Shown here one piece after another: positions 7,610 to 39,526 of a DNA stretch of 64,000 bases. Every line of letters starts with the position of its first letter. The stretch's first letter is position 1. A model generated the notes under the pieces. It searched no databases, was not told where the DNA came from, and was given only the letters and a program-made list of their open reading frames with translations. Made by a program: the position numbers and the translations under genes. The DNA comes from an uncultured bacterium (GTDB taxonomy: Bacteria > Patescibacteriota > Saccharimonadia > UBA4664), in the NCBI GenBank assembly GCA_963720265.1, contig CAVRET010000002.1, positions 878,069-942,068 of the forward strand. Direction: 5' to 3'.

Positions 7610-8551
7610 TTATTGTATAACATTAGTCACCCAACTTGCACTGGCCATCTTGCCCCCGACGTAAGCCATCCCGCGATCGGCTTCATAGACGGTTCGGATG
7701 CTCGGAGGGCTGAACTTATCGTTCAAAATAACTACAAGTTGGCTGCTTATCTCATATTTGATGAGTCTTCCGGAAGTCGAGTCGCGGAACTCCGCTACTT
7801 GGCTTGGATCGAGAGAGCTGGCGATAGGTTTGGCTAGCTGGATCATTTGCTTAAGCTTTTCCGCATCGCTTCCCTGAATATGCAGATCGTCAGCATGATT
7901 TATGATATGGTGGCCGCTGCTTTCCAGATGGCGCCAGGTGTTATCGGGTTGTTGGAAGTACCAGCTGGGATCTGCGCGAATTTCCAGGGGAGTAAGTCCG
8001 GCTACAGCACTCACGGACTGGAGGTGCTTAGCTCCTAAGGCTGGGTCTGACGACCCAAATCTAGGTTTGGGGTCAGATGCCGCAATCGCATTAGTCCAGC
8101 CATTAAAATATTTGGTGGCACGCGCAACGCTTCTAGGCGAAGGGTGCCCTGACCCATTAGCTTGAGGTTTATCAAGCAAATATGCTCTTGGATGTTGCGC
8201 CCTGCCGGTATAATACTTGCCAATCATGTCGGTGGCTTTTGTTTTTATATTGGTTCTCGCAGCATCTGATTTATTTTTCTCACATGGCGCACACAGGGCT
8301 GGCTCGATCCATTCCCCAATTTTTTTGTGATGCATGATTATGCTATTGCGCGAAAATTGTTGAGACCGCCCGCAGTTTCGACAGATGACTTGCACGCTGG
8401 ATTGGCCTTTGCGCCAGGCTATACAGGCCTTGCATGCAAGCGGCATGCTCAGGCCCCTCATCTCGTAGTACCCGACCTCTCCCTCATCAAGTTCAATGTT
8501 CCCATCCCCTTCGCAGTACGCCTGGCGGCAGGTGTCGCTGTAAGCGGCCAT
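7610..8551 (-). CDS. double zinc-ribbon protein (313 aa); C-terminal half unknown, possible degenerate HNH-like His cluster
   Basis: N-terminal Cys pairs are C-x4-C, CKAC, CRNC and CAPC. The ATG lies 1 nt after the helicase stop (cTAGcATG). A later GHHIINHADDLH His/Asn cluster is weak HNH-like evidence only. Confidence 0.55.
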   Translation of the reverse strand: MAAYSDTCRQAYCEGDGNIELDEGEVGYYEMRGLSMPLACKACIAWRKGQSSVQVICRNCGRSQQFSRNSIIMHHKKIGEWIEPALCAPCEKNKSDAARTNIKTKATDMIGKYYTGRAQHPRAYLLDKPQANGSGHPSPRSVARATKYFNGWTNAIAASDPKPRFGSSDPALGAKHLQSVSAVAGLTPLEIRADPSWYFQQPDNTWRHLESSGHHIINHADDLHIQGSDAEKLKQMIQLAKPIASSLDPSQVAEFRDSTSGRLIKYEISSQLVVILNDKFSPPSIRTVYEADRGMAYVGGKMASASWVTNVIQ

Positions 8552-8552
8552 G

Positions 8553-11500
8553 CTAGTTCAGCTCTTCGGGCTTATGCAAATGAATCAGCGACCATTTCTC
8601 GCCTTCGTCCGCGTCGTCACCAAGATAGGGTACGGCGATTGCGCTCAGAATCATTCCGTCGGCCAATTTGAGGGGCGTACCACCCTGCTTTAGATGCCCT
8701 CTACGACCGCCTTTTTCTTCTGTATCCTCACCCCAGTTGTAAAGCTCGTTATTGGTATCATTTTGAGCTTTTGAGATTCTGATTAAGATACGAGTTGTAT
8801 CTGCTGCAAGCTCCCGACAGAATTGGGCCTCCTCATGATCCGCTAGAGTCGGCAGGAAATACGTTAATAGGGATAGTTCTTCGTCTAGTTCGCACGTTTC
8901 GTGAATTAGTTGGTAATCGGCCCGGTGTTGCTTATTGATATATTTAATGGTTGCTTCGATGGCATTAAGAGATGATCGAATATTTGGCCCAAATAGACCC
9001 ATCGAAGCAGCCTCCTGGTCTAGTGCTTTCGACTGCGCATAGTATTCGAGTTCAGAGAGGTTGCCAAACAGATTGTCGCTAAACTCATTGGCGAAATAGC
9101 ACATGATCCTATAGAGCGACACCAACTCACTTTCCCTAGAGAGTGTGATTGCGTGCTTATGCGCTAGCAACACCGCTTGACTTTCGCCCGTCTCTGTCTC
9201 CACACATGTGTACCCTTCCTGGCCCAGAGAGGTCTTTAGAAGTTCCACCTGTTGCTCGTCGACGAAAAATGGTCGCTCGGTAGCGAGTTCCAGGCTGCCT
9301 CCTACACAAAAATCAGAATGTCGCTCTTGTACGTCCTTTAATCCTGTGCGAAATAAGGCCGCTAGAACAAGAAAGAACCCAAACTTATGGTCGTTGCGCT
9401 CTAATAGGGCTTCCTCGAGCCCGGCTGCGTAGCCAACGTCGGTCATTCCAATCCATGGTTGGCACATCTGCCCGCGCTCCGACAAACCGGTTCTATCTGT
9501 TAGCCCCATTTCTGTGAGGCGTCGCCGCTGTGCGAGGAATTCTTCCACGCGCGCTCTTGAGAGGTGCACCCGCGACGGAAGATTAAGGCGTGAGAGTTCT
9601 AGCTCGGGGTCTTCCCACTTTTGCTCAAAGCTGTAAAGTGCTAATGGCTCAAGTGAAGCGGTCTTGAAGGGCAGCTTGATCGGCTCGTTCTTCATGCCTT
9701 CGCTGTTGAGCTCTGCGTCCGAATAAGTAGAGAAGAATGCATCTTGCTCATTCGTGATATAGCCAATGCCTGATCTCACCCTACCTACCCGCCCTACCCG
9801 TTGATAGAGAGAGTTTACGTTGAGCGGTGCTAATCTTGGGAGCACCTCATCAGCAACCACTATATTCTCGAAAGCGCTACCCATCGTAACTACAAAGTCT
9901 AAGCTGGGAAAGGTGACGCCCATCTCAACCACATTTGTAGAAATAATGACGTATTTTGATTTTTCACTCTCAATTTGCTCCATTCTGTGTTCGAAGTCTG
10001 CTTTCAAGGTAGGGTCGCGGTTTATAGCACTTGCAAGCTTCACTACTCGGACAACTATGGCCTCTTTGTTGAGTGAACCTTCAATGAGGCCAGCAATACG
10101 ATTAATATCGCTCGTCTCCGAGGCGTAGCTGTTGGCAATAATTAGCATCCCTTGCGCTGTGTCGTTGCTACCAAGTACTGCTTTCTTCACCTCTTCGCTG
10201 TAGGGGTATGAGGTATCGGGGAAATACTTAGAGTTAGGGTCCGGTTGGACCAACGTGCCTTTCACCAAGTCGACGATGCAATCCATCATTGGCTGCTTCA
10301 TATTGTGAAGCCAGATCTTGTGGCTCTGCTTATTGGCCAGTATAAGATTTTGTACTGCTAGCATGTCCTTGATGCCACGCGTTTCGACAGTTGCCGACAT
10401 GTAATCTACTGGTATATCTCGATTCCTGCATAGAGCGATGGCCAACTCTACTTCAGAATTCTGACCGATTGTTATGTGAGCTTCATCGATGATAATTCTA
10501 TCAGCACCCGGCACTAGGTTGTTGTTCTTGGCCATTTGCGCAAACACGCCAGTAGTAATGAATTTTATGGGAGCGTCTGGATTACGAGACTTTGCGGATG
10601 TTGCGCATCCGAATATTTCCGCTGATCTCGAAGGGTTAAGTTGAGAGCTTTTTTGTGTCTTCAAAAAATCTTCGAATGAATCGTTCATATGATCCATTTC
10701 ATTGGTGGCGATAGGAATTGTGGGCTCTACGACGAATACTCGAGGTAAGTCGGTGCATTCTGAACCATCATCACGACCTTGGTAGTACTTCTCGCACATG
10801 CGAAGGAAGACGTGCACAGGTGCTGCTACAGTCTTGCCCAAGCCAGTTGCGGCCACAAGGAAAAAAGGCTCTTCTTTAATCTGGGACAGGTAATTTGCGA
10901 TGCCTAACGGCCGTGGGTAAGTCAGAATATGTCCGAGGAACTCCACTATCAGTGAGACATCATACTTGGTAGACCCGCCCCGATAGCCTCGAACAAGCAG
11001 ACTAATTTTTGGGATATTGTAAGAAATGGCGGATGTGCGCTCGTTGGAACTTGAAACAGGGGCTTTTACATGCTGGGGTACTGCACCATCTTGCACAGTC
11101 GTGCCGCTTGACTCCTGGCTCGATGGAAGTTTTTTGACGTTGGCCTGAGGCTTTGAAGCTGGTGCCGCACCGGCTATGTCAGGTTTAATGTGCGCCTCCG
11201 AAATAGATAGTCGGATTTGCTTACCAGCCGCTTCGCTAGCCATTTGCTCCAATCTAGACCGACTTAGTTCATAGGCGAAATGTTTCGGGCCAGAAGCGGT
11301 TGCTGTAATGAATGGCAGATTAATTACATACTTCTCAGCATCGGCTAACAGGACCCTTGCCTCTTCTGCTGCATCTCGCATTCGCTGCTGAGCGGCTTTA
11401 TCAAGCGATAAGTCTATGCCTTGTTCTCTTTTAAATTCACCTATCAAGTAGCTTGCAAGTACAAGGCGATAGTCACTCTCGGCGAGCCGAATGCTGTGGT

Positions 11501-11813
11501 CAATTATGGCTACACGGTCGGAACGACTGTCCGAGTTTTGTGCGGGGTGGTTGGCTGCTTTAATATCGTCGGCAACGGCGATACGCCTTATGCCTATAGC
11601 CTGCCATTTCCATTTATGATTCTGCGGGGCGCGAGAATCAAGCTCAGGGTGCTCCTTGAGCCTAAAAATGACAACCTCGCCAGCTTCGAGTGGGGATTTG
11701 ATATATACGAGAGATTCGGCATCAAACCATATTTCGCAGTCAATTTCTCCACCAATTTTAATGAAGCCCGGTGAGTTTTGAGTACTTCTTTGAAGAACCT
11801 GTCCTGCGTACAC
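8553..11813 (-). CDS. large DEAH-type SF2 RNA/DNA helicase (1086 aa), HrpA/HrpB- or NS3-like core with about 320-aa N-terminal and about 400-aa C-terminal extensions
   Basis: Motif I VAATGLGKT, motif II IIIDEAHI, motif III SAT and motif VI QRVGRVGR are all present. The start is GTG preceded by GGGGAGG. It is followed by three translationally coupled genes. Confidence 0.7.
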   Translation of the reverse strand: MYAGQVLQRSTQNSPGFIKIGGEIDCEIWFDAESLVYIKSPLEAGEVVIFRLKEHPELDSRAPQNHKWKWQAIGIRRIAVADDIKAANHPAQNSDSRSDRVAIIDHSIRLAESDYRLVLASYLIGEFKREQGIDLSLDKAAQQRMRDAAEEARVLLADAEKYVINLPFITATASGPKHFAYELSRSRLEQMASEAAGKQIRLSISEAHIKPDIAGAAPASKPQANVKKLPSSQESSGTTVQDGAVPQHVKAPVSSSNERTSAISYNIPKISLLVRGYRGGSTKYDVSLIVEFLGHILTYPRPLGIANYLSQIKEEPFFLVAATGLGKTVAAPVHVFLRMCEKYYQGRDDGSECTDLPRVFVVEPTIPIATNEMDHMNDSFEDFLKTQKSSQLNPSRSAEIFGCATSAKSRNPDAPIKFITTGVFAQMAKNNNLVPGADRIIIDEAHITIGQNSEVELAIALCRNRDIPVDYMSATVETRGIKDMLAVQNLILANKQSHKIWLHNMKQPMMDCIVDLVKGTLVQPDPNSKYFPDTSYPYSEEVKKAVLGSNDTAQGMLIIANSYASETSDINRIAGLIEGSLNKEAIVVRVVKLASAINRDPTLKADFEHRMEQIESEKSKYVIISTNVVEMGVTFPSLDFVVTMGSAFENIVVADEVLPRLAPLNVNSLYQRVGRVGRVRSGIGYITNEQDAFFSTYSDAELNSEGMKNEPIKLPFKTASLEPLALYSFEQKWEDPELELSRLNLPSRVHLSRARVEEFLAQRRRLTEMGLTDRTGLSERGQMCQPWIGMTDVGYAAGLEEALLERNDHKFGFFLVLAALFRTGLKDVQERHSDFCVGGSLELATERPFFVDEQQVELLKTSLGQEGYTCVETETGESQAVLLAHKHAITLSRESELVSLYRIMCYFANEFSDNLFGNLSELEYYAQSKALDQEAASMGLFGPNIRSSLNAIEATIKYINKQHRADYQLIHETCELDEELSLLTYFLPTLADHEEAQFCRELAADTTRILIRISKAQNDTNNELYNWGEDTEEKGGRRGHLKQGGTPLKLADGMILSAIAVPYLGDDADEGEKWSLIHLHKPEELN

Positions 11814-11962
11814 CTTTAACAGCCTCCCCTGGATTTACGCCGTGTCTGAAGACGGGAATTACTTGATAGCGATTACCATTATTGTTACCAGCTTAGTGGA
11901 CATGTCGGAACGCCTCAATAAGCTTTAGAGATCTAGTATTGCGGCACACGTTGGTCTGTCAT

Positions 11963-12187
11963 TTACAGACCTTTTAGTAGTTCGCTCGGATCTACCTTGA
12001 GCGCTTTCGCGATCTTCAGGATCTTATCAACGTTCAAATTTCGCTCGCCGCGCTCGAGTTGCCCCATGTAGCTGGCAGATATTCCAATTTTCCAGGCGAG
12101 TTCTTCTTGCGACATTTCGCGCTGTTCGCGGTAGCGCCGGATCTTCTGGCCAATCTTTTTGTGGCCGCGTGAGAGTTCTTCATTCAT
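11963..12187 (-). CDS. XRE-family helix-turn-helix transcriptional regulator (74 aa)
   Basis: Sequence ...REMSQEELAWKIGISASYMGQLERGERNLNVDKILKIAKALKV is a classic XRE/Cro-C1 HTH. It sits 149 nt upstream of the helicase on the same strand. Confidence 0.7.
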   Translation of the reverse strand: MNEELSRGHKKIGQKIRRYREQREMSQEELAWKIGISASYMGQLERGERNLNVDKILKIAKALKVDPSELLKGL

Positions 12188-12314
12188 TACTCCTTATGAA
12201 TAGATGGAACAACGCATATAGACCAGTTACTATGTGCGCTATTGCCTCTTATGGTTGTATCCGTTATAAATGCACATAGTTACTAAACTTTAGCTGTATA
12301 GAGGAGGCCGACCC
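12188..12314. promoter_or_regulatory. divergent promoter/operator region with inverted repeat AGTTACTATGTGC ... GCACATAGTTACT
   Basis: Two copies of an approximately 13-nt element in inverted orientation are spaced about 37 bp apart, between the XRE gene and the divergent 12315 gene. This is a plausible XRE operator. Confidence 0.35.
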
Positions 12315-13049
12315 ATGCCGGATATTCGTCCCCCACATCAACAAAGCCCGCCAGTGGCCAGCCCGCCGCCATCAAGCTACGGAGATGTGACGAGGTCATG
12401 GTGGAAGTCACTTACTCGCCTGCAACGCAACCGCCTTATTGGCCTCGGGGTCCTGGTGGTACTGATTGGTGGTGGCCTTGTAGCCGGCCACTATAATCGC
12501 AGTTCCGGGACCACAAGCAACGCACCCATAGTAGCGGCCAACGGCACCACCAGTATTGGTAAGGGTACAGTATTTGCCTACAACGGTATTACCTACACGG
12601 TCCAATTCGCTGGTGTAGATTTAGAAGGTCAAAGCACTCAATCGGCAACTGGCATGCAAATTGAATACTTCTTTACCATCAAGTCTCAACCTGCCAATCT
12701 GAATCGTACGCCCGATACGTTTTACATTGATGCCGCGATACCCAAAGCAGAAGCACCGGATTGTGGCGTCAGCCCGACACCAATCCCGGCAGATTCTCTT
12801 GTGCAGGAAATTAACTACTTCGTGCCCGTCCCGCAGAAAGCTGGCTGGTGTGAGTGGTTCCAAGGCCTGAATGACCAAAGCAACTCGACCGCGTCTGCGG
12901 ATGACCCGAACGTACCGGATTACTCGCCAACGCCACAGGAAATTCAGTTAAACGAACTTAATGCACCCCTCAATCGCACGAAGGTAGTGCTTGTTATCCG
13001 GCCCAGTAGTGGCGGTAGCCAGTGGATCGTGCCGTATCCCAGCAATTAA
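12315..13049 (+). CDS. membrane-anchored/secreted hypothetical protein (244 aa), Pro-rich N-terminus with one TM segment
   Basis: RBS GGAGG precedes the ATG. The hydrophobic stretch LIGLGVLVVLIGGGLVAG is a TM segment. Confidence 0.55.
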   Translation: MPDIRPPHQQSPPVASPPPSSYGDVTRSWWKSLTRLQRNRLIGLGVLVVLIGGGLVAGHYNRSSGTTSNAPIVAANGTTSIGKGTVFAYNGITYTVQFAGVDLEGQSTQSATGMQIEYFFTIKSQPANLNRTPDTFYIDAAIPKAEAPDCGVSPTPIPADSLVQEINYFVPVPQKAGWCEWFQGLNDQSNSTASADDPNVPDYSPTPQEIQLNELNAPLNRTKVVLVIRPSSGGSQWIVPYPSN

Positions 13050-14500
13050 AAGCTGTGCGGTCGATAGTCAGTGTAGGCTACGAGCTCACTGCTAAAGGCG
13101 CGAGGAACGGCGGGCGGGATTGTGGCTGCCAGAGTCTCATTGGCGTCCCTAACAGCCTCCGTCACCATCCCCCGATGCGCCTCAAATAGAGCATTCCGCT
13201 GGTGCACCGCACGGCTCTGCTGTTGAACCTGATCGCGCGCGCGACGGTAATGCGCTCTGTCCCCGAAATATTCGACGACCAGCGGAACGTCGTGGATCAA
13301 AATGGCTACGATAACTATCGCCATGAGTACGACAAATGGGTACTGCTGGATTAATACCGATATCACGCCAACTACCAGGAAGAACACCGCCATCTGCAGT
13401 CGCCGTCCCAGCATCGTGGCAAGCACCGGTTCTCGGGGAGGGGTCGGCAGGGCAACGGGATTTTTAAGACATGCACTGGCTTCGTCCCGCATATTCGACA
13501 AGCTCATCTGCATACGACGGCGGTAGATGGCCAGGTTGAGTACATTCGTTCGCGGCCCTGGCGCTCGCTTGGGCGGCGTCGGCTTCTCGCGCGTCATCGG
13601 CACGCCGGCTTGGTGGCACGCGTCGTAGAGATTGTCCCACGAAGTATTGAGTGCCCGAGCCTGGGTCACGAGCGTTCGACAGGACTCCTGGGTGGCTTCG
13701 TCAATTCGATCTAATTCCATAGACTCGGCGGCGATTACCAGCTCCGCGTCGATGAGAAAGGCTTTAGCCAGCTCCCGCTCAGCCACCTCTCGCTGCTGCG
13801 GTCCGTTGGCGTACTTCATGAGTGGCAACGCAACGTCGGGACAGTCGCGGGATATGGCGCGCCGCAGTACTTCCCAACCGGCGCGTTCGTTGCCGATTTG
13901 CGCGTAGCACCGGGCGGATAAGATGGCGGCCTCAGCGCTCAAGGCTGGGTTAGCGTCAGCAAACAAAGCGCTATCGGCAAACGCCGCCGCTGCTACATCG
14001 GGCTGATCGTTACTGGCATACAGAAAGCCCAGGGCGTGCCAGGCCACAAAGTCCGTCGGATTGAGGGCGACAGCATGTTTGAGGTGCTGGACAGCCAGTA
14101 GCAACTTATCTTTGGACGCAAGATACAGGCCCTTTTCGCGCCTGGCGGCGGCCCTGGCATCATCCCAGTTTGAGAGGATCTGCACGATTTGATCAAGCTG
14201 GGCTGAGATCTGTAGGAGCTGGCGAAGCGTCAGCACGAAGCCGACGTGTGTGATCGCAACTAAATTGCCCAGGTTGAGGGCAATGTGCCTACGGTCGGTT
14301 GCGGCTTCGGTCTCAAGTTGGGTAATCGCTCTTAGTCCAGCATCCACCCTATCGTCCATGCGGGCGATGTTACGACCGACATATTTGGTCGTGCGCCGGA
14401 GCTCAGTGAGATCCACGTGCTGCCGCGCGGCAATAGACCGCATAGTTTTTTCGTAACTGGCGGTTTGACGCTGAATCGTTTGTTCGACGGCACTAGACAT
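13046..14500 (-). CDS. TPR-like repeat protein with C-terminal transmembrane segments (484 aa)
   Basis: Ala/Leu-rich helical repeats (AWHALGFLYASNDQPDVAAAAF...) and the C-terminal hydrophobic run MAVFFLVVGVISVLIQQYPFVVLMAIVIVAILI. Confidence 0.5.
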   Translation of the reverse strand: MSSAVEQTIQRQTASYEKTMRSIAARQHVDLTELRRTTKYVGRNIARMDDRVDAGLRAITQLETEAATDRRHIALNLGNLVAITHVGFVLTLRQLLQISAQLDQIVQILSNWDDARAAARREKGLYLASKDKLLLAVQHLKHAVALNPTDFVAWHALGFLYASNDQPDVAAAAFADSALFADANPALSAEAAILSARCYAQIGNERAGWEVLRRAISRDCPDVALPLMKYANGPQQREVAERELAKAFLIDAELVIAAESMELDRIDEATQESCRTLVTQARALNTSWDNLYDACHQAGVPMTREKPTPPKRAPGPRTNVLNLAIYRRRMQMSLSNMRDEASACLKNPVALPTPPREPVLATMLGRRLQMAVFFLVVGVISVLIQQYPFVVLMAIVIVAILIHDVPLVVEYFGDRAHYRRARDQVQQQSRAVHQRNALFEAHRGMVTEAVRDANETLAATIPPAVPRAFSSELVAYTDYRPHSF

Positions 14501-14661
14501 ACTGTCTTGTTTATTTCCTCACAAACTTGGTAATCGGATAGAATTACACAAACTTTCTGTCGTGTCAATGTTTTTTGCTTTTCCAGGGCCATTTTTCAGG
14601 TTTGAAGCCTGTCATGCTTGACTGATGTAATTTTACAGCGCTATGCTCTTAGCCATCCGCT

Positions 14662-14853
14662 GTGAATTTACAGCATTTAACCGAAAGGGGGTCAGGTATG
14701 ACGAAAAAAATCAAAGTGAAGGTGGTACGGCGCGAGCCGATCGACGCCGAAAAGCTCGCCTCAGCGCTGGTAGAAATCGCCATTAGGGTGGTTAAGAAGC
14801 CGAGCGAAACGACGAGCAAGGACTCGGCTAACGGGACAACTGACCATGAATGA
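14662..14853 (+). CDS. small hypothetical protein (63 aa; probable Met start MTKKIKVKV at 14698 after GGGGG RBS)
   Basis: ORF track. First of three overlapping, translationally coupled genes that lead into the TraD-like gene. Confidence 0.35.
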   Translation: MNLQHLTERGSGMTKKIKVKVVRREPIDAEKLASALVEIAIRVVKKPSETTSKDSANGTTDHE

Positions 14854-15004
14854 TCATATTCGGGCGAGAATTGCGCGCGGCAGGTTGCCGGAGATCAAGC
14901 AGATTGGTTCGGATCGGCCGGATGTTCCAGCGATTCTGTCGCTTAACAAGAGCCGACACCGCAAGCCACGCGACGCACGGCGAGTGAGGCGGTCCGATGT
15001 TTAA
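14846..15004 (+). CDS. small Arg-rich basic protein (52 aa), not in the ORF track
   Basis: Its ATG overlaps the previous stop (ATGAATGA) and its TAA overlaps the TraD-like ATG at 14997. Translation is MNDHIRARIARGRLPEIKQIGSDRPDVPAILSLNKSRHRKPRDARRVRRSDV. Confidence 0.25.
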   Translation: MNDHIRARIARGRLPEIKQIGSDRPDVPAILSLNKSRHRKPRDARRVRRSDV

Positions 15005-17303
15005 CGCGCTTGCCGAACTACTGCTGTTAGGTGCTACCGGCGTCGTGGCCGTCCGGTGCGTGGAGCAATATCGCATCGAGATGCACCGCCTGGCCTACGA
15101 GTTATATTTTCCGCATGGGCTGAAGCCTGACGCTGTCGCTGACTACATGCGGATCGTAGCCCATATGTTGCCTCGGCCAAAATTTCGCATCCTTGCGCAC
15201 ACGTCGTTTGTGCTTGAGACCCGCGCATCTCACGAGGGCATTCGGCACGTGGTGCACCTGCCTGAAACTTATGCTGGAACGCTTCTGGCGCAATTACACG
15301 CGGTTGTTCCGGGCGTTCGAGCCGTACAACTTCACTCAGCAGGCAGAACCGTGCAACCCCTGGTAACTCGTGAGTTGCGACTGACGAACCGGCTCTACCC
15401 GCTGAATGTCGACCATGCCAATGCCGCAACCCTGGCCATGCTGGCTAGTCTGCAGCCGCTAGAGCGCGGTGAATCGGTTGTCGTCCAGATGGTTATGGCC
15501 CCGGTCACGTCTCCGAGCCTGCCCCGGCAGCGTTCGCCCAAGCCGTATCAGATCCCCCTGCCCTGGTGGTCGCGTATGTTGTTTGACGTTGTAACTTCAA
15601 ACCCGCTGACGCCGGATCAACGGGCGGCGGCCGAGCTAAAGCTAGCCGAGCCGGCCTTTAGTGGCACGCTGCGGATCGGAGCACAAGCTCGCACGCGACG
15701 CCGCAGTCGCCACCTGGTGCGGTGCCAAATCGCACCACTGCAAATTTTGAGCACCCAGCAAGCCCGGTTCGTTCGCCGCCGCGTGCCAAGCGTCGTTGCG
15801 ACGTGGGCATTTGAACGGGCGTTCCTGCCGATCGTGCTATTTCCGGTCACGCTCAATGCGGTCGAGCTGGCCAGTCTGTCAACCTGGCCGATCCTATCAC
15901 CGGTTCTCCCCGGACTTAGGATCGGAGCCAGCAGACTGGTGCCACCGCCGGTTGCTATTCCGGTTTCCGGTCACGTCTTAGGCGAAGCGAATTATCCCGG
16001 CACGACCAGACCGGTGGCGGTCAGTGTGAGCGCCAGCTTGCGACACACCTACGTCATTGGCCCGACCGGCAGCGGGAAATCTACGCTCCTCATCAACTTG
16101 GCCGTCCAGGACATGGCGGCCGGACGAGGTCTGGCGGTGTTCGATCCCAAGGGTGACCTCATTGAGGACTTACTGGCGCGCGTACCGAGACATCGGCTGG
16201 GTGACGTCGTCGTGATTGACCCGACCGACCCAACTCGCGCCGTTGGCCTCAACTTACTCGATCACAGCGCGTCAATCAGTAGCGAACTAGCGGTTGACCA
16301 GATTGTGGGGACGTTCAAGCGACTGTTTGTCGGGTTCTGGGGACCGCGCACCGACGACGTCCTGCGCTCGTGCCTCCTGACACTGGCCCACCACCCCGAT
16401 ACCACGCTGGTTGATGTGCCGCTACTGCTGCAGGATTCGAAATATCGGGATCGACTGGTCGACGCCATCGACGATCCGGTTGGACTGGCACCATTTTGGA
16501 AATGGTACAAAGCCTTAAGCGACAAAGAGCGTAGTCAAGTGGTCGGGCCGGTGCTGAACAAATTGCGGGCGTTACTGCTGCGTAAGGCCGTCCGTGACAT
16601 TGTGGGACAACCCCAGTCCACTATCCGCATGAGCGAGATTATCGCCCAGAACAAGATTCTGCTTGTGAGTTTGCCAAAAGGCCTACTGGGTGAGGATACC
16701 AGCTCGTTACTGGGCTCACTGTTGGTGATGAATTTGTACCAGGCGGCAACACAACGCGCCAGCTTGCCGGTCGAACAGCGCACCCCGTTTTTCTGCTATA
16801 TCGACGAATTTCAGGACTATCTGAACCTGCCTCAAGGAGTTGAAACGATCCTGGCCCAGGCGCGAGGGTTCGGATTTGCCCTGGTTATGGCGCATCAGCA
16901 CCTGGCTCAGTTGTCCAAAGAAGTCCGCGACGGCGTGCTGGCCAATGCCCGCACCAAGGTGGTGTTCCAGACGGCCGCCAGTGACGCTCGGACGCTGGCG
17001 GACGAATTCGAGCCTCACATTACGGCGAGCGACTTACAGAACCTCGAACCACATCAGGCGTTTGCAATGGTGGCATTGAACAACCAGCCAGCGGCGGTTA
17101 CCAGTATCGCGACCGCTCCGCCGCCACCACCGTCAAGCGATCCGCAGCGGATAAAGGCCATGTCGGCGGCCAAGTACGGAACGAGCCGCTACGACATTGA
17201 GCAATTCATGCGCTCACGCCATGTGGCCGACTATGCCACCGCCCCGGATCAGTCAACGGGGACCGACGTTGAATCTACCGAAGGGTTTACCGATGGTTTG
17301 TAG
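14997..17303 (+). CDS. TraD/TraG/VirD4-like type IV coupling protein family P-loop ATPase (FtsK/HerA superfamily), 768 aa
   Basis: Walker A VIGPTGSGKSTLLINL and Walker B FFCYIDEFQDY are present, along with a C-terminal acidic tail. A paralog lies at 40808..43432. Confidence 0.7.
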   Translation: MFNALAELLLLGATGVVAVRCVEQYRIEMHRLAYELYFPHGLKPDAVADYMRIVAHMLPRPKFRILAHTSFVLETRASHEGIRHVVHLPETYAGTLLAQLHAVVPGVRAVQLHSAGRTVQPLVTRELRLTNRLYPLNVDHANAATLAMLASLQPLERGESVVVQMVMAPVTSPSLPRQRSPKPYQIPLPWWSRMLFDVVTSNPLTPDQRAAAELKLAEPAFSGTLRIGAQARTRRRSRHLVRCQIAPLQILSTQQARFVRRRVPSVVATWAFERAFLPIVLFPVTLNAVELASLSTWPILSPVLPGLRIGASRLVPPPVAIPVSGHVLGEANYPGTTRPVAVSVSASLRHTYVIGPTGSGKSTLLINLAVQDMAAGRGLAVFDPKGDLIEDLLARVPRHRLGDVVVIDPTDPTRAVGLNLLDHSASISSELAVDQIVGTFKRLFVGFWGPRTDDVLRSCLLTLAHHPDTTLVDVPLLLQDSKYRDRLVDAIDDPVGLAPFWKWYKALSDKERSQVVGPVLNKLRALLLRKAVRDIVGQPQSTIRMSEIIAQNKILLVSLPKGLLGEDTSSLLGSLLVMNLYQAATQRASLPVEQRTPFFCYIDEFQDYLNLPQGVETILAQARGFGFALVMAHQHLAQLSKEVRDGVLANARTKVVFQTAASDARTLADEFEPHITASDLQNLEPHQAFAMVALNNQPAAVTSIATAPPPPPSSDPQRIKAMSAAKYGTSRYDIEQFMRSRHVADYATAPDQSTGTDVESTEGFTDGL

Positions 17304-18179
17304 ATGCGCTCGCATCTTCAGGCTTTGGGGCAACCTTCATCACAGATTAAGACAGGTGACTCTCTTAGTACTAAGGCATGTGCAATGACGCAGCTTCAGC
17401 GGCACAGCCGTGATGACCTGCTAACGACGGCCAAGCGCTTAACGGACCGTGACCGCGCCATTGTGGCAACGCTGGCAAGCGTGCGCCTGGCAACTGCCGA
17501 GCATATTCGACAACTCCACTTTGCGACTGGTTCACCAATTTCAACTGGCCGGGACTGCCGACGAGTCCTCAACCGCTTAATCGGGCTCGGGGTGGTGAGC
17601 GTGCTCGACCAGGGACAGCGTCGCAGTAATGGTGGCCGATGGCCTCACTACTACCGACTCGGCTCTGTCGGACAACGCTTGGTCTGGCCGGAGCGTAGGC
17701 GCTATCCCCAAATTCTGCCGATGGGCAGTCAGTTTCGCGCCCATATCCTGGCCCTGACGGATCTGTATGTGGCAATTCATGTCGCCGCTAGTTCCGGGGC
17801 GGTTGAGATCCGCAGATGCCAAACCGAACCGCGATGCTGGCGGAGAACATCGGCGCTACGATCCGGGACATTAAAGCCCGATATGTATTTACTCTTGGGT
17901 CGCCAGCGCGTAATCCAGGCTACGTTCATCGAAATGGATATGGCGACCGAGCCGCCCGTGCGGATTCGCGCCAAACTTAACCAGTATTACGACTACTGGG
18001 CCAGCGGCCGCGAACAGGAGCGCACTAAGCTATTTCCGCGGGTGCTGTTTCTGGTTCCCAACCAGACGCGTCTAACGCAAATCCAGCAAATAATTAGCGA
18101 CCAACCCAAGTACATGCAGGCCCTGTTCACGGCTGCCCTGCAAGCAGACGCCATACCAACCTTAATTGGAGGACTTTAG
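17304..18179 (+). CDS. replication-relaxation family protein (winged-helix), 291 aa
   Basis: The N-terminal wHTH LTDRDRAIVATLASVRLATAEHIRQL...RRVLNRLIGLGVV resembles the Replic_Relax family, and a paralog sits at 39958..40713 in the same position relative to a TraD-like gene. The ATG at 17304 is coupled to the TraD stop (TAGATG). An alternative start is at 17385 (MTQLQRH). Confidence 0.5.
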   Translation: MRSHLQALGQPSSQIKTGDSLSTKACAMTQLQRHSRDDLLTTAKRLTDRDRAIVATLASVRLATAEHIRQLHFATGSPISTGRDCRRVLNRLIGLGVVSVLDQGQRRSNGGRWPHYYRLGSVGQRLVWPERRRYPQILPMGSQFRAHILALTDLYVAIHVAASSGAVEIRRCQTEPRCWRRTSALRSGTLKPDMYLLLGRQRVIQATFIEMDMATEPPVRIRAKLNQYYDYWASGREQERTKLFPRVLFLVPNQTRLTQIQQIISDQPKYMQALFTAALQADAIPTLIGGL

Positions 18180-18182
18180 CCT

Positions 18183-19187
18183 ATGACCCAACTACCACGA
18201 AACGAAATCTTACTTGGTGACGCCGCAATGCGTCTGAAAGAATTGCCCGACGCCTCGATTGACTGTGTAATCACCTCCCCGCCCTATTACCGCTTGCGCG
18301 ATTATGGCGTCAACCGCCAGATCGGGGCCGAACCCGGCGTCACGGGCTGGGTTGAGGCCTTACGCGCCGTATTCCGCGAACTTGTCCGCGTCCTGAAGCC
18401 AACCGGCTCGGTGTGGCTCAACTTAGGAGATACCTATTCGGGCAAAGTCGCCGAGGGCGCACCCGCCTATTCCCTACTGCTTGGACCTGAGCGATTGCTG
18501 TTTGCCCTGGCCCAAGACGGCTGGATTGTGCGTAATAAGGTGATTTGGGACAAGACAAGAACCACGCCGCACCCGACCAAAGACCGGCTCACGCCCGCCT
18601 ATGAGGTCATTTACTACCTGGTACGCTCCCGGCCGTATCACTTTGATCTGGACGCGATTCGGGACACTCACTTACCAAAGACACTAGAGCGAGCAATCGC
18701 GGCGTTCCCAGAGCTCCAAAACGTGCCAAAGACCCAACTGCTCGGTCGTAATCCTGGCGATGTGTGGCGGTTTGCACCCAGCGTCTATGCCGGGGCGCAT
18801 TTCGCGACCTTTCCGCCAGAACTGGTCAGGCGTCCGCTGCTGGCGACGTGCCCAGAGAAGATCTGTACCGCCTGTAAGCGGCCGTGGCGGCGCATGGTTA
18901 CACCACTGTATGTCCCAACCTCGCGCTCGATTGGCGCGATCCGGCGGGCGCAAATGAACTATCCGATGCAGGATGTGATCTACATCCCGGGCGAGCTGCT
19001 ACCAGATTGTTTGTGTAATGCCCCGACCGTGCCCGGTGTGGTATTGGATCCATTCTTCGGCAGTGGCACCGTCGGCGCGGTCGCCCGCAAATTAGGTCGG
19101 GACTACATCGGCATTGAGCTCAACCCGGAGTACATCCAGCTTGCTAAGGACCGAATCAAAGCCGCTGGGGATCACGCCAATGCTTGA
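18183..19187 (+). CDS. beta-class N6-adenine/N4-cytosine DNA methyltransferase (334 aa), apparently orphan
   Basis: Motif IV CVITSPPY (D/S-PPY) is N-terminal and motif I DPFFGSGT is C-terminal, as in ParB-type/N4-N6 methyltransferases. No adjacent endonuclease gene. Confidence 0.75.
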   Translation: MTQLPRNEILLGDAAMRLKELPDASIDCVITSPPYYRLRDYGVNRQIGAEPGVTGWVEALRAVFRELVRVLKPTGSVWLNLGDTYSGKVAEGAPAYSLLLGPERLLFALAQDGWIVRNKVIWDKTRTTPHPTKDRLTPAYEVIYYLVRSRPYHFDLDAIRDTHLPKTLERAIAAFPELQNVPKTQLLGRNPGDVWRFAPSVYAGAHFATFPPELVRRPLLATCPEKICTACKRPWRRMVTPLYVPTSRSIGAIRRAQMNYPMQDVIYIPGELLPDCLCNAPTVPGVVLDPFFGSGTVGAVARKLGRDYIGIELNPEYIQLAKDRIKAAGDHANA

Positions 19188-19265
19188 TGTTTTGAGCAAT
19201 ACCTGTTGTAAACTTACAGCGATAGGTATACAATGCAAATCCAGCAATGAACTCAGGGAGATTCA

Positions 19266-19631
19266 ATGGCACCAGTTAGTCGCACTGAACTGGGCAACTA
19301 CATTCGAGAAGCGCGCGAGCGTAAGGGTATTTCCGCACGCGAACTTGGTCGGCGAACCGATATTGATTCGGCCGCTATTTCGCGTATGGAGCGCGGTGAG
19401 ACGGTTCCACGGTATGCAGTTGACCGGCTTGCACGCATTGCGGACGAGCTGGGGCTTGATAGCTACAACTTGTATGAAATGGCTGGCTACCCGATGTCTA
19501 GCAACCTGCCAGATCTTCCAGCTTACCTTAAAGCGAAGTACAAGTTGCCGGAAGGTGCTGTCGACGACATGGCCGAATATCTTAAGATTTTGGAAGCAGA
19601 GTATAAGGTTAAGCCGGACACCGAAGACTAA
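19266..19631 (+). CDS. XRE-family HTH regulator (121 aa)
   Basis: GISARELGRRTDIDSAAISRMERGE is an XRE-type HTH. The overlapping ORF 19114..19758 was rejected. Confidence 0.65.
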   Translation: MAPVSRTELGNYIREARERKGISARELGRRTDIDSAAISRMERGETVPRYAVDRLARIADELGLDSYNLYEMAGYPMSSNLPDLPAYLKAKYKLPEGAVDDMAEYLKILEAEYKVKPDTED

Positions 19632-19754
19632 GCAGTTTGCACATTTGAGGATATTGAATCGGGCACGCATGCCCGATTTTTGCGTTAGAAAGGCCTCAGT
19701 GATCCGTCGGAAGCGTGGTATCCTCCCTCCTCAATTAAGTGAGGAGAAGTGCGT

Positions 19755-21419
19755 ATGAAGAAAGCCGTTATTTATTTGAGAGTATCGACCCCGAGCCAAG
19801 GCAATACGGATCGCGACCCCGAGGGCCTATCGATCCCAGCTCAGCGCGAAGCCTGTGTTCTGAAAGCCGAGAGCCTAGGCGCTGAGGTTGTCGAGGAGTT
19901 TAAAGATCAGGGCGAATCGGCCAAGTCGGCCGATCGCGAGGAATTGCAGCGCATGATGAAATTCCTGCGTGAGCATAACGACATTGACTATATGATCGTA
20001 CATAAGCTTGACCGCTTTATCCGCCACCGAGATGATGATGTATTTCTTGGAATTGAACTGCGCAAGCTCGGCGTAAAGTTCATATCTTGTAGTGAGAATA
20101 TCGATGAGACGCCCTCGGGCAAGCTCATGCACGGCATGCTCGCAAGCTTTGCCGAGTACTATTCAAACAATCTCGCCTTGGAGGTCAAAAAGGGCATGGA
20201 TCAGAAGGCTAAGGTCGGCGGGACGCCCACCCGCGCTCCATTGGGTTATCTGAACGTGCCTGAAGTTATCGGCCAGCGGGTAATCCACTCTGTTGCTATC
20301 GACAAGGAGCGGGCTCCACTGATCCGCGAGGCATTTGAGCTATACGCTACCGGCGAATATTCGATTATCGAGTTGTGCGACCTGTTGAGCATGAAAGGTC
20401 TGCGCTCGCGAGCCGGTAAAAAAGCCATCTCACGGCCGATTACCTGGAGTACCCTCGGCAAGATCTTAAATATGCCCTACTACACCGGCGACATTGTATA
20501 TAAAGGCGTGAGGTATGAAGGTCGGCATACGCCACTGATTTCCAAAGAGTTGTTTGAGCAAGTGCAACAAGTATTGAAATCACGCGTTAATGGCGAGAAA
20601 CAGCGTGTGCATACGCATTACCTCAAAAGCAGTGTGTATTGCATGCGGTGCGGTGCTCCATTGCGTATCACGGCCGCCAAGAGCGCATATTTGTATTACT
20701 TCTGCTCAGCACGACCAAAGCGCCATAAGTGCGATCTGCCCTACGTTGAAGCCGGGCGCATCGAGGAAAGCTTGCTCAATTGTTACCGCACAGTGCAGCT
20801 CACTGATAAGGAGGTGGATGAGATTCGTGCGCAAGTCGCAATTAATCTGCAGAAAGGTCGTCATTCGGCCGAAGTCGATGCAAAACGGCAGACTTCACGC
20901 CTCAACGAACTAAAAGCAGAGCGAGCGAAGCTCATGCAGGCCTACTACGCCAATGCGATCCCGCTCGATGTGCTCACTACCGAGCAAACACGTATCAATC
21001 GGGATATTCAGGAGGCCGAATCAATCCTTGCAAAGGGCACGACGAAATTTGAGGAGTTGAGTGAGATTTTTGAAAAGGCAATCTGGCTATTACAAGACTG
21101 CTACACGACCTATGAGCAAGTGCCAGATAAGATCCGCCGCATGATGAATCAGGCGTTGTTCTCGCACGTGTACGTCGATCAAGAATCTGATACCGGGATA
21201 ACGAAAACACGGGCTGTGGACCTCTCAGAGCCGTTTGGAGTCATCATGGCGCTCACGAACCGTCCTGTGCAGCCACTAAGTAAATTAGCCTTGCCTGAAC
21301 CAAAAACAAGGCCTCGTGGCCTTGTTTTAAGCAATTCGGCTCTTTATAAAGCCGAAGGTTCTGAACATAAACTTTTGGTGGGCAATGAGGGGCTCGAACC
21401 CCCGACCTCCTCGGTGTAA
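19755..21419 (+). CDS. large serine recombinase/integrase
   Basis: Resolvase catalytic domain (AVIYLRVSTPSQ), recombinase domain and Cys zinc ribbon (CMRCGAPL...C...C). The ATG at 19755 follows a GAGGAG RBS, and the track start at 19749 is a GTG inside that RBS. The 3' end overlaps tRNA-Val on the opposite strand. Confidence 0.8.
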   Translation: MKKAVIYLRVSTPSQGNTDRDPEGLSIPAQREACVLKAESLGAEVVEEFKDQGESAKSADREELQRMMKFLREHNDIDYMIVHKLDRFIRHRDDDVFLGIELRKLGVKFISCSENIDETPSGKLMHGMLASFAEYYSNNLALEVKKGMDQKAKVGGTPTRAPLGYLNVPEVIGQRVIHSVAIDKERAPLIREAFELYATGEYSIIELCDLLSMKGLRSRAGKKAISRPITWSTLGKILNMPYYTGDIVYKGVRYEGRHTPLISKELFEQVQQVLKSRVNGEKQRVHTHYLKSSVYCMRCGAPLRITAAKSAYLYYFCSARPKRHKCDLPYVEAGRIEESLLNCYRTVQLTDKEVDEIRAQVAINLQKGRHSAEVDAKRQTSRLNELKAERAKLMQAYYANAIPLDVLTTEQTRINRDIQEAESILAKGTTKFEELSEIFEKAIWLLQDCYTTYEQVPDKIRRMMNQALFSHVYVDQESDTGITKTRAVDLSEPFGVIMALTNRPVQPLSKLALPEPKTRPRGLVLSNSALYKAEGSEHKLLVGNEGLEPPTSSV

Positions 21420-21452
21420 ACGAGGCGCTCTAGCCAGCTGAGCTAATTGCCC
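21376..21452 (-). tRNA. tRNA-Val (anticodon TAC)
   Basis: The complement reads GGGCAATTAGCTCAGCTGGCTAGAGCGCCTCGTTTACACCGAGGAGGTCGGGGGTTCGAGCCCCTCATTGCCCACCA. It has a 7-bp acceptor stem, D-arm AGCTCAGCTGG, anticodon loop TTTACAC, T-arm GGTTCGAGCC and an encoded CCA. Confidence 0.8.
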
Positions 21453-27163: not shown

Positions 27164-27265
27164 ACGCTATTGGTTTGTTGAATAATTCCATGGTGCCCCT
27201 GAGTGGTCTCCAGTCGAACACCTTTTAGGATGGTTTGATAGGATTATGTCAGCTTTTGCGTAAAT
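27164..27265. repeat. approximately 100-bp direct repeat, copy A (overlaps last codons of the PIN gene)
   Basis: ACGCTATTGGTTTGTTGAATAATTCCATGGTGCCCCTGAGTGGTCTCCAGTCGAACACCTTTTAGGATGGTTTGATAGGATTATGTCAGCTTTT is about 86% identical to copy B at 28067..28170. Confidence 0.6.
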
Positions 27266-27636
27266 TCGTTTGGCGACATTATCTGAGTATTTTTGTGAGC
27301 CTTAAGAGTAAGGAGGTCGTTGTCTGCAGTTACGAGATAATCCACTCTGCCCTCTATTGCTGCGGCTAGTACATAATCGTCGAGTGGATCGCGAGAGATG
27401 TGCTCGACGATTTTGGGGACCACAACTTCAGACAGCTTTCCTAGGGCGTTACTGGTCACTTTGGCTTTTTGACTCGTGAAGCCAAATTTTGTCCGGAGAA
27501 CAGCCTCGAGTTCGGCCAGGATGTAATCTGACGTTACGTGAACGTTTGCCGGGGTCTCCAACAGATTTCTAAACCGAGCGAGCTCTTCTCTCCTTGTCAT
27601 AGTGGCCAGAACGTTTGTATCGTACAGAAACCGCAT
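27244..27636 (-). CDS. PIN-domain ribonuclease toxin (VapC-like)
   Basis: MRFLYDTNVL... opens with the N-terminal PIN acidic residue, and later TADNDLL provides another. It lies immediately downstream of an RHH antitoxin gene. Confidence 0.7.
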   Translation of the reverse strand: MRFLYDTNVLATMTRREELARFRNLLETPANVHVTSDYILAELEAVLRTKFGFTSQKAKVTSNALGKLSEVVVPKIVEHISRDPLDDYVLAAAIEGRVDYLVTADNDLLTLKAHKNTQIMSPNEFTQKLT

Positions 27637-27643
27637 TCGCTGC

Positions 27644-27928
27644 TCAGCTCGAACTTTCGGGCGACAAGTATTCGCGGCGAACTTCTTTTACTGCCCGCAC
27701 GAAATCATCATCCGTGACGTAGCCACGTTCGGCGGCGGCCACACCAGCATCCGCCATCATTGCCTCGAGAACTGCCCAGTCTTGCTGAACTGATTGCTCA
27801 GATTTTAGCTTCTTCACCACCGCTTGGCGAATGTATTCGCTCCTGTTTGTGTATTCAGCCCTGGCCACTTTATCAACCTGGCTTACTAGCTCCTCTGGAA
27901 GGGAAATATTAATTGTTTGACTCGGCAT
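27644..27928 (-). CDS. ribbon-helix-helix (CopG/VapB-like) antitoxin
   Basis: MPSQTINISLPEELVSQVDKVARAEY is an RHH beta-strand plus helix. The track start at 27949 is upstream, and the Met at 27928 is the likely start. Confidence 0.55.
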   Translation of the reverse strand: MPSQTINISLPEELVSQVDKVARAEYTNRSEYIRQAVVKKLKSEQSVQQDWAVLEAMMADAGVAAAERGYVTDDDFVRAVKEVRREYLSPESSS

Positions 27929-28066
27929 ATGTATCTGCTCCACATACATGATATATACATATATTGTATATATTGGCTACACTGCGGTCAAGAAATTACG
28001 CGTTGGTGTGCAGTACAAAAACACAATGGTTTGAACATAGCGTTGAACATAGCGTTTTTGTATTAA

Positions 28067-28170
28067 ACGCTATAGATTTGTTGAATAATTCCTCTGGTGC
28101 CCCTGAGTGGTCTCCAGTCGAACACCTTTTACAGTGGCTTGATGGCCTTATGTCAACTTTTCGAGGGGAA
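28067..28170. repeat. approximately 100-bp direct repeat, copy B (preceded by tandem TTGAACATAGCG x2)
   Basis: ACGCTATAGATTTGTTGAATAATTCCTCTGGTGCCCCTGAGTGGTCTCCAGTCGAACACCTTTTACAGTGGCTTGATGGCCTTATGTCAACTTTT. Confidence 0.6.
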
Positions 28171-28190
28171 AGTTGATGTTTACGCCGGGT

Positions 28191-28406
28191 TTACAGTTCC
28201 AGCGACTTAATGCCGAGGGCCTTCATAATGCGTTGGAGTTTCTCAAAGGATGGGTTTTCCTCGCCGCGCTCGATGCGGGCGTAGTAGTTAGTATTGAGGT
28301 CGGCGGCGGAAGCGACTGCGGCCTGGGTCAGGCCGGCCTGTTCACGGGCCTTCCTGAGCTTTTCGCCGAGCTCTTTGCGTGGGTTTTCTTGATCTTTTGT
28401 AGCCAT
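28191..28406 (-). CDS. XRE-family HTH regulator
   Basis: LGEKLRKAREQAGLTQAAVASAADLNTNYYARIERGE. It is divergent from the Mrr-type gene, and the Met at 28406 (MATKDQ) is the likely start. Confidence 0.6.
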   Translation of the reverse strand: MATKDQENPRKELGEKLRKAREQAGLTQAAVASAADLNTNYYARIERGEENPSFEKLQRIMKALGIKSLEL

Positions 28407-28443
28407 ATATGGATAACTATACCATTTCAGGGGGATTGTCGGC

Positions 28444-28971: not shown

Positions 28972-29044
28972 TGGACGAAACCAACGGCTTGCCCTGGAGG
29001 CCCGCATCCGCGACTATATCTTTAACATAAGTGGAGAGGGTGCG

Positions 29045-31113: not shown

Positions 31114-31209
31114 ACGTGCTCCTCTCATCCCCGGCTTGCGGCCGTCGTTATTGTAGGTGGCTCCGCTGCGGCGTCGGCAATATCGCCGGCCCCGCAGCGA
31201 GTCCCGGAC

Positions 31210-31368: not shown

Positions 31369-31608
31369 GGCGCCCTCCTACTTTGCGCTGCCCCGCGTAA
31401 ATAATGTACGATGGATGGGCAGTTCCATTCTCGGCCTGCGCAGACTGCCGGTTCACGCCGGCGGTTTTTGTCTACGGGTTTTATTATTGAGCCGTAGAAC
31501 TTTATCGTCAAGTTTTTTTCTAAATACTGTTTGTATGCTTCGGTTTGTGCTCTAAGACTAATTACTTAGAGATTGCATATCTTGCTCACTTGTGCTATCG
31601 TGTGATTT

Positions 31609-39511: not shown

Positions 39512-39526
39512 AGAAGGGCCCGGAGC

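Follow-up and report, generated by a model that had tools for sequence, protein, structure and literature searches.

Introduction

Among the described mobile systems, those closest to the locus considered here are the streptococcal integrative mobilizable elements (IMEs) of IME_Class_8 and the mobilization genes of the plasmid CloDF13. The former, of which only two streptococcal examples have been reported (Coluzzi et al. 2017, PMC5357655), associate a compact VirD4-type coupling protein, a PF13814/MobC relaxase and a serine integrase in elements devoid of mating-pore genes, and the triad of coupling protein, MobC and serine integrase is a known IME class. In CloDF13, the coupling-protein gene mobB stands directly upstream of mobC, the gene of a ~250-aa PF13814 relaxase, and the plasmid, according to Nunez and de la Cruz (2001) as cited in later papers, provides its own coupling protein and needs only the pore of a helper. 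Integrative and conjugative elements of actinomycetes (AICEs) are likewise small (~10-17 kb), inserted at tRNA 3' ends and common in Actinomycetota. Insertion at tRNA genes is classically associated with tyrosine integrases and is described as rare for serine recombinases (PMC3218068, PMC4383910, PMC10654092). In the present work, we analyse a 64,000-nucleotide stretch of DNA (the window) from an uncultured bacterium of the Saccharimonadia (contig CAVRET010000002.1), and we propose that its region from ~11.85 kb to 21.38 kb, which adjoins a tRNA-Val gene, is probably an IME of ~9.5 kb with its own MOBC relaxase, coupling protein and serine integrase. The element belongs to a large family that seems not to have been described so far, in which serine integrases target the 3' tips of tRNA genes, a habit that is unusual for this class of enzymes.

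Results

Gene content and extent of the element

The gene inventory was drawn up from the table of open reading frames (ORFs), ARAGORN and the Pfam/NCBIfam matches; the public copy of the locus (L001) is identical in sequence to the window. An earlier reading of the same DNA, hereafter the original prediction, had placed a tRNA-Val-associated integrative element between 14600 and 21452. Every gene that it listed is confirmed by these sources. Its left limit lies too far right, for the closest relative (L002), a JGI metagenome contig with a 9.9-kb element made of the same eleven genes in the same order, has three further genes in common with the window (11963-12187, 12315-13049 and 13046-14500). 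The synteny with L002 ends just past the 74-aa helix-turn-helix (HTH) gene, and the window element therefore reaches at least to 11,963. From left to right, the following features were delimited:

11826..11860: candidate left attachment site (attL), aligning with the attL region of L002, weakly supported
11963..12187, minus strand: 74-aa XRE-type HTH regulator of the left arm (HTH_3, 2.4e-16)
12225..12284: divergent promoter region with the inverted repeat AGTTACTATGTGC / GCACATAGTTACT, read directly from the sequence
12315..13049, plus strand: 244-aa protein with one predicted membrane helix (hydrophobic segment aa 39-60)
13046..14500, minus strand: 484-aa protein with a weak TPR signal (TPR_17, 3.8e-5) and a hydrophobic stretch at aa ~360-410
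14618..14680: predicted transfer-operon promoter (TTGACT ... TATGCT), containing operator copies at 14622-14639 and 14657-14676
14698..14853, plus strand: small ORF 1, 51 aa (frame open over 14662-14853, ATG at 14698 the likely start)
14846..15004, plus strand: small ORF 2, 52 aa, Arg-rich, overlapping ORF 1 (ATGAATGA) and the start of the ATPase gene (ATGTTTAA)
14997..17303, plus strand: 768-aa type IV coupling protein (MobB/TraD/VirD4-like ATPase), from Pfam, NCBIfam and PDB-sequence matches
17385..18179, plus strand: 264-aa MOBC-family relaxase (PF13814, 2.5e-32), frame open from 17304
18183..19187, plus strand: orphan N6/N4 DNA methyltransferase (N6_N4_Mtase, 2.5e-43; PADLOC MTase_II, 1.5e-73)
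19203..19220: third copy of the operator, an exact match to the operator pattern, located upstream of the gene for the 121-aa regulator
19266..19631, plus strand: 121-aa XRE-type regulator (HTH_31, 2.7e-12)
19755..21419, plus strand: 554-aa large serine recombinase (integrase), frame open from a GTG at 19749
21357..21378: element-side arm of the right junction, composed of GGTTCTGA (21357-21364), an 11-nt spacer and TGG (the CCA)
21376..21452, minus strand: host-owned tRNA-Val(tac), the integration target (ARAGORN)

All eleven genes are intact and have kept their conserved motifs. The G+C content amounts to 58-61% at 15-19 kb and 52-53% at 19-21 kb, versus 47-51% in the first 13 kb of the window. 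An integrase, a relaxase and a coupling protein of its own, without mating-pore genes, place the element among the IMEs; no secretion-channel family is matched in any scanned ORF of the element or of the rest of the window, in agreement with the absence of type IV secretion system (T4SS) channel genes noted in the original prediction.

The coupling protein and the relaxase

The ATPase matches three Pfam families of coupling proteins, TrwB_AAD_bind (E 1.2e-11, 44.6 bits for a cut-off of 20.5), T4SS-DNA_transf (E 4.6e-7, 29.5 bits for a cut-off of 20.1) and TraG-D_C (E 3.9e-5, 24.0 bits for a cut-off of 22), and gives no match to FtsK_SpoIIIE (PF01580) at E<0.01. Its Walker A motif GPTGSGKST and its DEFQ box are invariant in 30 homologues. 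The original prediction had left the choice between TraB/FtsK and VirD4 to be made by profile comparison; when the profile of the 30-sequence family is compared with the PDB sequences, the coupling proteins TrwB (1.7e-7) and DotL (4.2e-7) outrank FtsK (4.7e-3). At least 768 homologues of ~750 aa are found at E<=1e-10, those that bear a name being coupling or TraG proteins, and the L002 counterpart is 76% identical. The N-terminal membrane anchor consists, according to hydropathy, of one hydrophobic helix (aa ~4-22) and is followed by a conserved domain of ~330 aa without match to a known family. Judged on these comparisons, the ATPase is a type IV coupling protein and not an enzyme of the FtsK/TraB type. 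The pairing of a TraD/FtsK-like ATPase with a Rep-like protein had been likened to the transfer logic of AICEs; the ranking of TrwB and DotL over FtsK, combined with the absence of FtsK_SpoIIIE, RepSA, RepAM and Prim-Pol, leaves this analogy unsupported.

The original prediction had also held that the element encodes no recognisable MOB relaxase, which must be revised. The 264-aa protein matches PF13814 (Replic_Relax) with 112.9 bits (cut-off 25.3) over profile positions 3-191 of 191, and PF13814 is the MOBC relaxase family of the CONJscan scheme (PMC5357655, Table 1). The element does therefore have a relaxase, and the annotation "replication-relaxation protein" should be read as MOBC relaxase. 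In a CloDF13-like plasmid typed MOBC by MOB-suite, the 243-aa MobC matches the same model end to end (4.1e-22) and the gene of a 653-aa coupling protein lies directly upstream of its gene; this clean plasmid was used in place of the CloDF13 reference NC_002119, in which the mob reading frames are broken and the ORFs are without Pfam match. PMC3424549 places PF13814 in the PD-(D/E)XK nuclease fold, with a winged-helix (HTH) domain for DNA binding at the N-terminus fused to the restriction-endonuclease-like domain at the C-terminus. The AlphaFold2 model of the relaxase, obtained with 38 homologues (pLDDT 92.5), displays N-terminal helices followed by an alpha-beta-beta-beta-alpha-beta core whose predicted topology resembles that of restriction endonucleases, and H120, D166 (KPD), E183 and D185 (ExD), which are invariant in the 38 sequences, sit on the predicted core strands. 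The best PDB matches of the model in Foldseek, all of them weak, are FokI, PaqCI, XisH-like proteins, SwaI, BamHI and winged-helix regulators; the relaxase profile gives no match among the PDB sequences.

The relaxase is 45% identical to its L002 counterpart. Its start at 17385 is that of all homologues and of the public gene call, leaving an 81-nt gap after the ATPase gene. The TAGATG sequence on which a translational coupling of the two genes had been founded does exist at 17301-17306, but in view of this start it is probably not a coupling signal. The spacers that separate the two genes in the window and in L002 show no conservation. In some relatives, a 39-aa ORF occupies this place (L002 9885-10004, hydrophobic; L078 8618-8737), versus an unrelated 81-nt spacer in the window.

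The family and its mobility

When species-representative genomes were scanned with the alignment of the relaxase, 70 loci were obtained, among which the window's own genome does not figure, and tblastn was then run on them with the window proteins. About 55 of these loci possess a colinear core (identities of 32-46% for the ATPase, 25-38% for the relaxase and 31-46% for the recombinase), which, with the metagenomic relatives, answers by the affirmative the original prediction's question of a recurrence of the module in other genomes. The loci belong mostly to Solirubrobacterales, Acidimicrobiales and other Actinomycetota, plus one Chloroflexota. The core shared by L003, L076-L081 and others consists of a minus-strand gene for ~460-480 aa, small ORFs, the ATPase, the relaxase, usually a methyltransferase, an XRE gene and the recombinase, and the left-side cargo varies, TIR, NUDIX and DUF2726 proteins being among it. 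In one relative of 10.3 kb delimited by its attachment (att) sites, no ORF is large enough for a VirB4-type ATPase.

The window recombinase contains the Pfam domains Resolvase (PF00239, 1.8e-31), Recombinase (PF07508, 3.5e-15) and Zn_ribbon_recom (PF13408, 2.1e-8) as well as the serine motif YLRVST; it is 55% identical to that of L002 and 53% to that of L076. Its ORF overlaps the 3' end of tRNA-Val by 44 nt. This arrangement is the rule in the family: 48 of 59 recombinase genes have a convergent tRNA at their 3' end, which is entered by the ORF in 46 of the 48. The tRNAs concerned are of the types Ser, Ala, Pro, Val, Glu, Leu, Arg, Lys and Met, with Gly in L002. Two pairs of relatives combine near-identical recombinases with different targets:

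L025 / L034: recombinases 96% identical; tRNA-Val(tac) / tRNA-Ala(ggc); DNA 91-98% identical over 1.5 kb up to a shared TGGTGG
L005 / L032: recombinases 95% identical; tRNA-Arg(acg) / tRNA-Arg(cct); DNA 88-98% identical over 1.5 kb up to a shared TGGTGC

Past the shared hexamer, which comprises the CCA and 3 nt, the flanks are unrelated in both pairs. Since near-identical recombinases are found in different tRNAs and the homology ends at the hexamer, the family is mobile and its right junction is placed; the crossover is thereby confined to the CCA, the discriminator and two bases. These pairs bear out the tRNA-attached integrative mobile element of the original prediction, and at the level of the family they do not agree with the fixed ancestral region that it had set against a mobile element. 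A tRNA carried as cargo of the element was also considered and is ruled out, because near-identical elements adjoin different tRNAs.

The right junction has a fixed geometry. When the junctions are anchored on the discriminator, a match of at least 6/8 to GGTTCGAA lies exactly 14 nt upstream in 41 of 48, compared with 2 of 30 control tRNAs of the same loci, and the T-loop TTCGAA of the tRNA itself starts 14 nt downstream of the anchor. With GGTTCGAA 14 nt before the discriminator and the T-loop 14 nt after it, the junction forms a dyad centred at the boundary between CCA and discriminator. The GGTTCTGA arm of the window stands in the family register, and we infer the right junction of the window copy, including the exact position of the crossover, by analogy with the relatives.

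Several observations accompany this junction. In the integrated elements (window 21354-21419; L025, L034, L005 and L032), the recombinase gene takes the codons of its last ~10-15 residues from the antisense strand of the tRNA; the tails end in a G-[LF]-E-P motif derived from the T-arm, the stop codon of the window gene falls within the anticodon loop, and the C-terminal tail of the recombinase must differ in the excised form. Many elements (e.g. L005, L004 and L013; window 21303-21355) possess, directly before the GGTTCGAA motif, a G+C-rich hairpin of variable sequence and fixed position, 20-45 nt upstream of the tRNA 3' end. In some elements, this hairpin falls inside the coding sequence of the recombinase; it might serve as a terminator or as a structure for recombination. 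In L076 (16400-16470), no tRNA follows the recombinase gene: a GGGTTCTGAT arm is succeeded by TGGTGCACCTAGCGGGGAGCCTTCGGAAGG, which resembles a tRNA 3' end and is not called as a tRNA by ARAGORN. L076 may thus have, at this end, either the intact attP of an element residing on a larger replicon or a target tRNA that has degenerated.

The left junction

Left junctions were found in at least nine relatives, in the form CGG-N7-GGGA-CGACTCTCGAAAC or variants of it, and give element lengths of 10.2-13.8 kb. In these attL sites, the element-side TCGAA is 5-6 bp further from the junction than the T-loop of the tRNA; a similar offset between attP and attB exists in other large serine integrases. The candidate attL region of L002 comprises a copy of the tRNA-Gly 3' tip and then TCGCACC, 20 nt past the discriminator position, a geometry that recurs in the attL sites of other family members. 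From its alignment with this region, the left end of the window element is probably near 11826-11860, where a decayed attL is a possibility. The left edge of the L005/L032 homology was rejected as an attL because it lies inside a gene and represents a mosaic breakpoint.

Regulators, operators and accessory genes

The pattern CTGTNGTAANNTTACAGC, whose arms form an inverted repeat, has 7 matches in the window, a number reached in none of 100 shuffles, and three of its copies (14622, 14657 and 19203) occupy the promoter of the transfer operon and the region upstream of the 121-aa XRE gene. At the same three positions, L002 exhibits a different palindrome, GTTCCACATGTGGAAC, and its XRE protein, 57% identical to that of the window, differs in the HTH region. 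The operator triplets thus covary with the XRE protein, their sequence changing and their positions being kept, which supports the 121-aa protein as the repressor of the transfer operon and of its own gene, an assignment that we infer from these comparisons. A second regulator, the 74-aa HTH protein, is 85% identical to L002:4632-4856, and homologues are encoded left of the ATPase in many family loci. The inverted repeat AGTTACTATGTGC / GCACATAGTTACT, located between its gene and that of the 244-aa protein, is kept in L002 and is the probable operator of the 74-aa regulator, which would be the protein that binds it.

The methyltransferase was described as an orphan in the original prediction, and no nuclease gene is indeed found beside 18183-19187; a homologue (42-55% identity) occupies the same position in ~12 family loci and also in L002, L003, L076 and L078. 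The two tiny overlapping ORFs said to lead into the ATPase gene are real genes, both kept at the protein level in L002. The first ~35 aa of ORF 1 are near-identical there, and ORF 1 resembles a 54-aa ORF of L003; ORF 2 is encoded in L002 by a frame starting at 7482 that the gene caller overlooked. Neither has a Pfam match, and a relaxosome-accessory role for ORF 2 is a guess. In the left arm, the 484-aa protein is 45% identical to L002:5689-7140 (483 aa), and L076, L078 and L080 have genes for 459-481 aa at the same position and on the same strand; by these alignments, the 484-aa gene is a conserved core gene of the subfamily. The 244-aa protein, in whose place L002 has a 236-aa gene, is without Pfam or PADLOC match, and PADLOC gives no match for the uncharacterised proteins of the element in general.

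The neighbourhood of the element

The original prediction had seen the same module twice in the window. A second ATPase and PF13814 pair with a recombinase-tRNA junction is present at 39958-47871, but the sameness is a loose one: identity between the two PF13814 proteins is no more than 18%, and the two elements arrange their genes differently. This second element (39182-47871) is of a different subfamily, has DUF3768 and DUF6188 genes alongside and no in-register GGTTCGAA motif in its right arm. Its principal features are:

39958-40713, minus strand: PF13814 relaxase
40808-43432, minus strand: 874-aa coupling-protein-like ATPase
44392-45825, minus strand: first large serine recombinase
46225-47871, plus strand: second large serine recombinase, whose ORF covers the whole tRNA-Leu(gag) gene
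47760-47843, minus strand: tRNA-Leu(gag)

A Kiwa defence pair adjoins it (KwaB 37545-38393 and KwaA 38398-38970, PADLOC), and the stretch from 27244 to 37099 is dense in defence and toxin-antitoxin genes:

27244-27949: PIN/RHH pair
28444-28971: Mrr-like nuclease
29676-30578: PD-(D/E)XK nuclease
30472-31128: DUF4145 protein
31866-32342: DpnI-like protein
32488-37099: Eco57I-like restriction-modification pair

Just left of the tRNA-Val element (7610-11813) are the genes of a 1086-aa protein, which combines an Hsp70-like N-terminus with a DEAD/Helicase_C core, and of its 313-aa partner. A homologous pair (34% and 30% identity) is located inside the family element of L017 (2169-4669), and PADLOC finds only weak SngC and Cas3 similarity. 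The genes may represent a mobile module of cargo or what is left of an older element in tandem. At the other end of the window (55296-63857), giant CBM_4_9 proteins (2853 aa and at least 2480 aa) are encoded, as they are in the L002 contig (15968-20795), which suggests that the two hosts are related.

Discussion

The model that we propose combines site-specific integration with a transfer that borrows the pore of another element. The serine recombinase would insert and excise the element at the 3' tip of tRNA-Val, with an attachment site embedded in the 3' end of the recombinase gene itself. On the side of the element, the T-loop-like motif GGTTC(T)GA would mirror the T-loop of the tRNA about a centre formed by the CCA, the discriminator and the acceptor end, and a crossover at this centre would leave the tRNA intact. 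The 121-aa XRE repressor would bind the transfer-operon promoter at two operators and the promoter of its own gene at a third; the lifting of this repression would result in the synthesis of the two small proteins, the coupling protein, the MOBC relaxase and the orphan methyltransferase. After excision, the relaxase would nick an origin of transfer (oriT), and the coupling protein of the element would hand the complex of relaxase and DNA over to the mating pore that a co-resident conjugative element provides, as do MobB and MobC of CloDF13. By this analogy, transfer would depend on the T4SS of a helper, and the methyltransferase would probably shield the incoming DNA from restriction.

As regards target recognition, we tentatively suggest, with some reservation, that this clade of integrases uses the universal T-arm and acceptor end of tRNAs as one half of attB, attP being a mirror-image mimic of the T-loop in the 3' end of the integrase gene. 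As this half of the site is common to all tRNAs, integrases that are 95-96% identical could hop between tRNA genes (Val to Ala, Arg-ACG to Arg-CCT). If true, this would explain how serine integrases make use of a conserved, harmless and ubiquitous target and would show how target switching happens. It would add small mobilizable elements of ~10 kb to a mobilome that has been little studied, that of Solirubrobacterales, Acidimicrobiia and other Actinomycetota, and the integrases could prove re-targetable, almost any genome offering them landing sites that already exist, which makes them candidates for genome engineering.

Several observations weigh against an IME that is still mobile and helper-dependent, and some of them favour a remnant, once mobile and now fixed through the decay of its left attachment site. 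In 1-21300, neither local alignment, nor a mismatch search, nor a score for a repeat plus mirror arm reveals a tRNA-Val-tip repeat or a mirror arm above the controls, and the stretch at ~11826-11860 is ~3 nt out of register with the L002 attL. No empty site or excised circle is available for this copy, the host and element proteins that were looked up being all singletons at 90% identity, and the closest relative is only 45-85% identical at the protein level. We nevertheless consider such a remnant unlikely: none of the eleven genes is damaged, the right arm and the operators are in order, and many family members are equally without a long attL repeat and have only 3 nt in common with the tRNA, so that an undetected repeat is weak evidence of decay. 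The remaining objections concern the transfer functions. No oriT and no recombination directionality factor are identified in the element, and no helper T4SS is known for the genome, of which the window covers 64 kb on a contig that measures at least 1.1 Mb. The coupling protein has a single N-terminal membrane helix, and VirD4-type coupling proteins typically have two. For the relaxase, the best Foldseek match in the PDB has an E-value of only 5.7e-3, and the direct hhalign comparison with MobC of the CloDF13 family is weak (E 0.0018, probability 15%); its assignment to MOBC is therefore founded on the Pfam model that the two have in common and on the predicted fold.

An autonomous element of the AICE kind, in which the ATPase would be a TraB/FtsK-type pump for double-stranded DNA and the PF13814 protein a replication initiator, would account for the lack of mating-pore genes in the element and in its att-delimited relatives. 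The relatives are mostly from Actinomycetota, the phylum of the AICEs, relatives on Bacillus plasmids pair PF13814 with proteins annotated FtsK/SpoIIIE, further membrane proteins are encoded by the element, and AICEs of Mycobacterium have serine recombinases in a tRNA-Leu gene (Ghinet 2011, PMC3218068). All of this is outweighed in our opinion by the ATPase, which matches three coupling-protein families instead of FtsK_SpoIIIE and whose profile prefers TrwB and DotL to FtsK by about four orders of magnitude, by the want of a RepSA, RepAM or Prim-Pol domain in any ORF of the element, by the treatment of the characterised PF13814 members (CloDF13 MobC and pAD1 TraX) as relaxases in the literature, and by the correspondence of the gene pair to mobB-mobC of a helper-dependent plasmid; we judge an AICE quite improbable. 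Derivation from a phage, or a satellite moving by packaging and not by conjugation, is brought to mind by the MobC-like and coupling-ATPase-like genes of some Bacillus phages such as 0305phi8-36 and SPO1 (PMC3357382), but no capsid, terminase or other virion gene is detected in the element and a scan of IMG/VR with the relaxase alignment returned no relative, which makes this origin very hard to credit. The IME with its own relaxase and coupling protein thus remains the reading that we retain.

A literature search, with many subscription papers outside its reach, gave no description of the element family or of an attP that mirrors the T-loop, and the systems that come nearest differ from the IME in definite respects. 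IME_Class_8 is likened to it by gene layout: the streptococcal serine integrases insert within genes or intergenic regions (PMC5357655), those described here at tRNA 3' tips, and the element has in addition a methyltransferase, two regulators and membrane proteins. CloDF13 is a plasmid without recombinase, whereas the element is integrated, and the proteins of the two are very distant, the hhalign E-value of the relaxases being that given above and the BLASTP similarity of the ATPases being confined to the Walker A region. Serine recombinases at tRNA genes are also known from phiRSM1 (tRNA-Ser) and from the Mycobacterium AICEs (tRNA-Leu) (Ghinet et al. 2011, PMC3218068). The former is a filamentous phage with a small resolvase-like enzyme, the latter have FtsK-type Tra and Rep proteins, and both lack the module of coupling protein and MOBC relaxase; they are compared with the element by description. 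As for the AICEs at large, most of them possess a tyrosine integrase, an FtsK/SpoIIIE TraB pump and RepSA, RepAM or Prim-Pol proteins, none of which is present in the element. What is new beside all these systems is the existence of dozens of serine-integrase elements that occupy the 3' tips of tRNAs of at least nine types, their junction being fixed and mirror-symmetric, and the presence of near-identical enzymes in different tRNAs.

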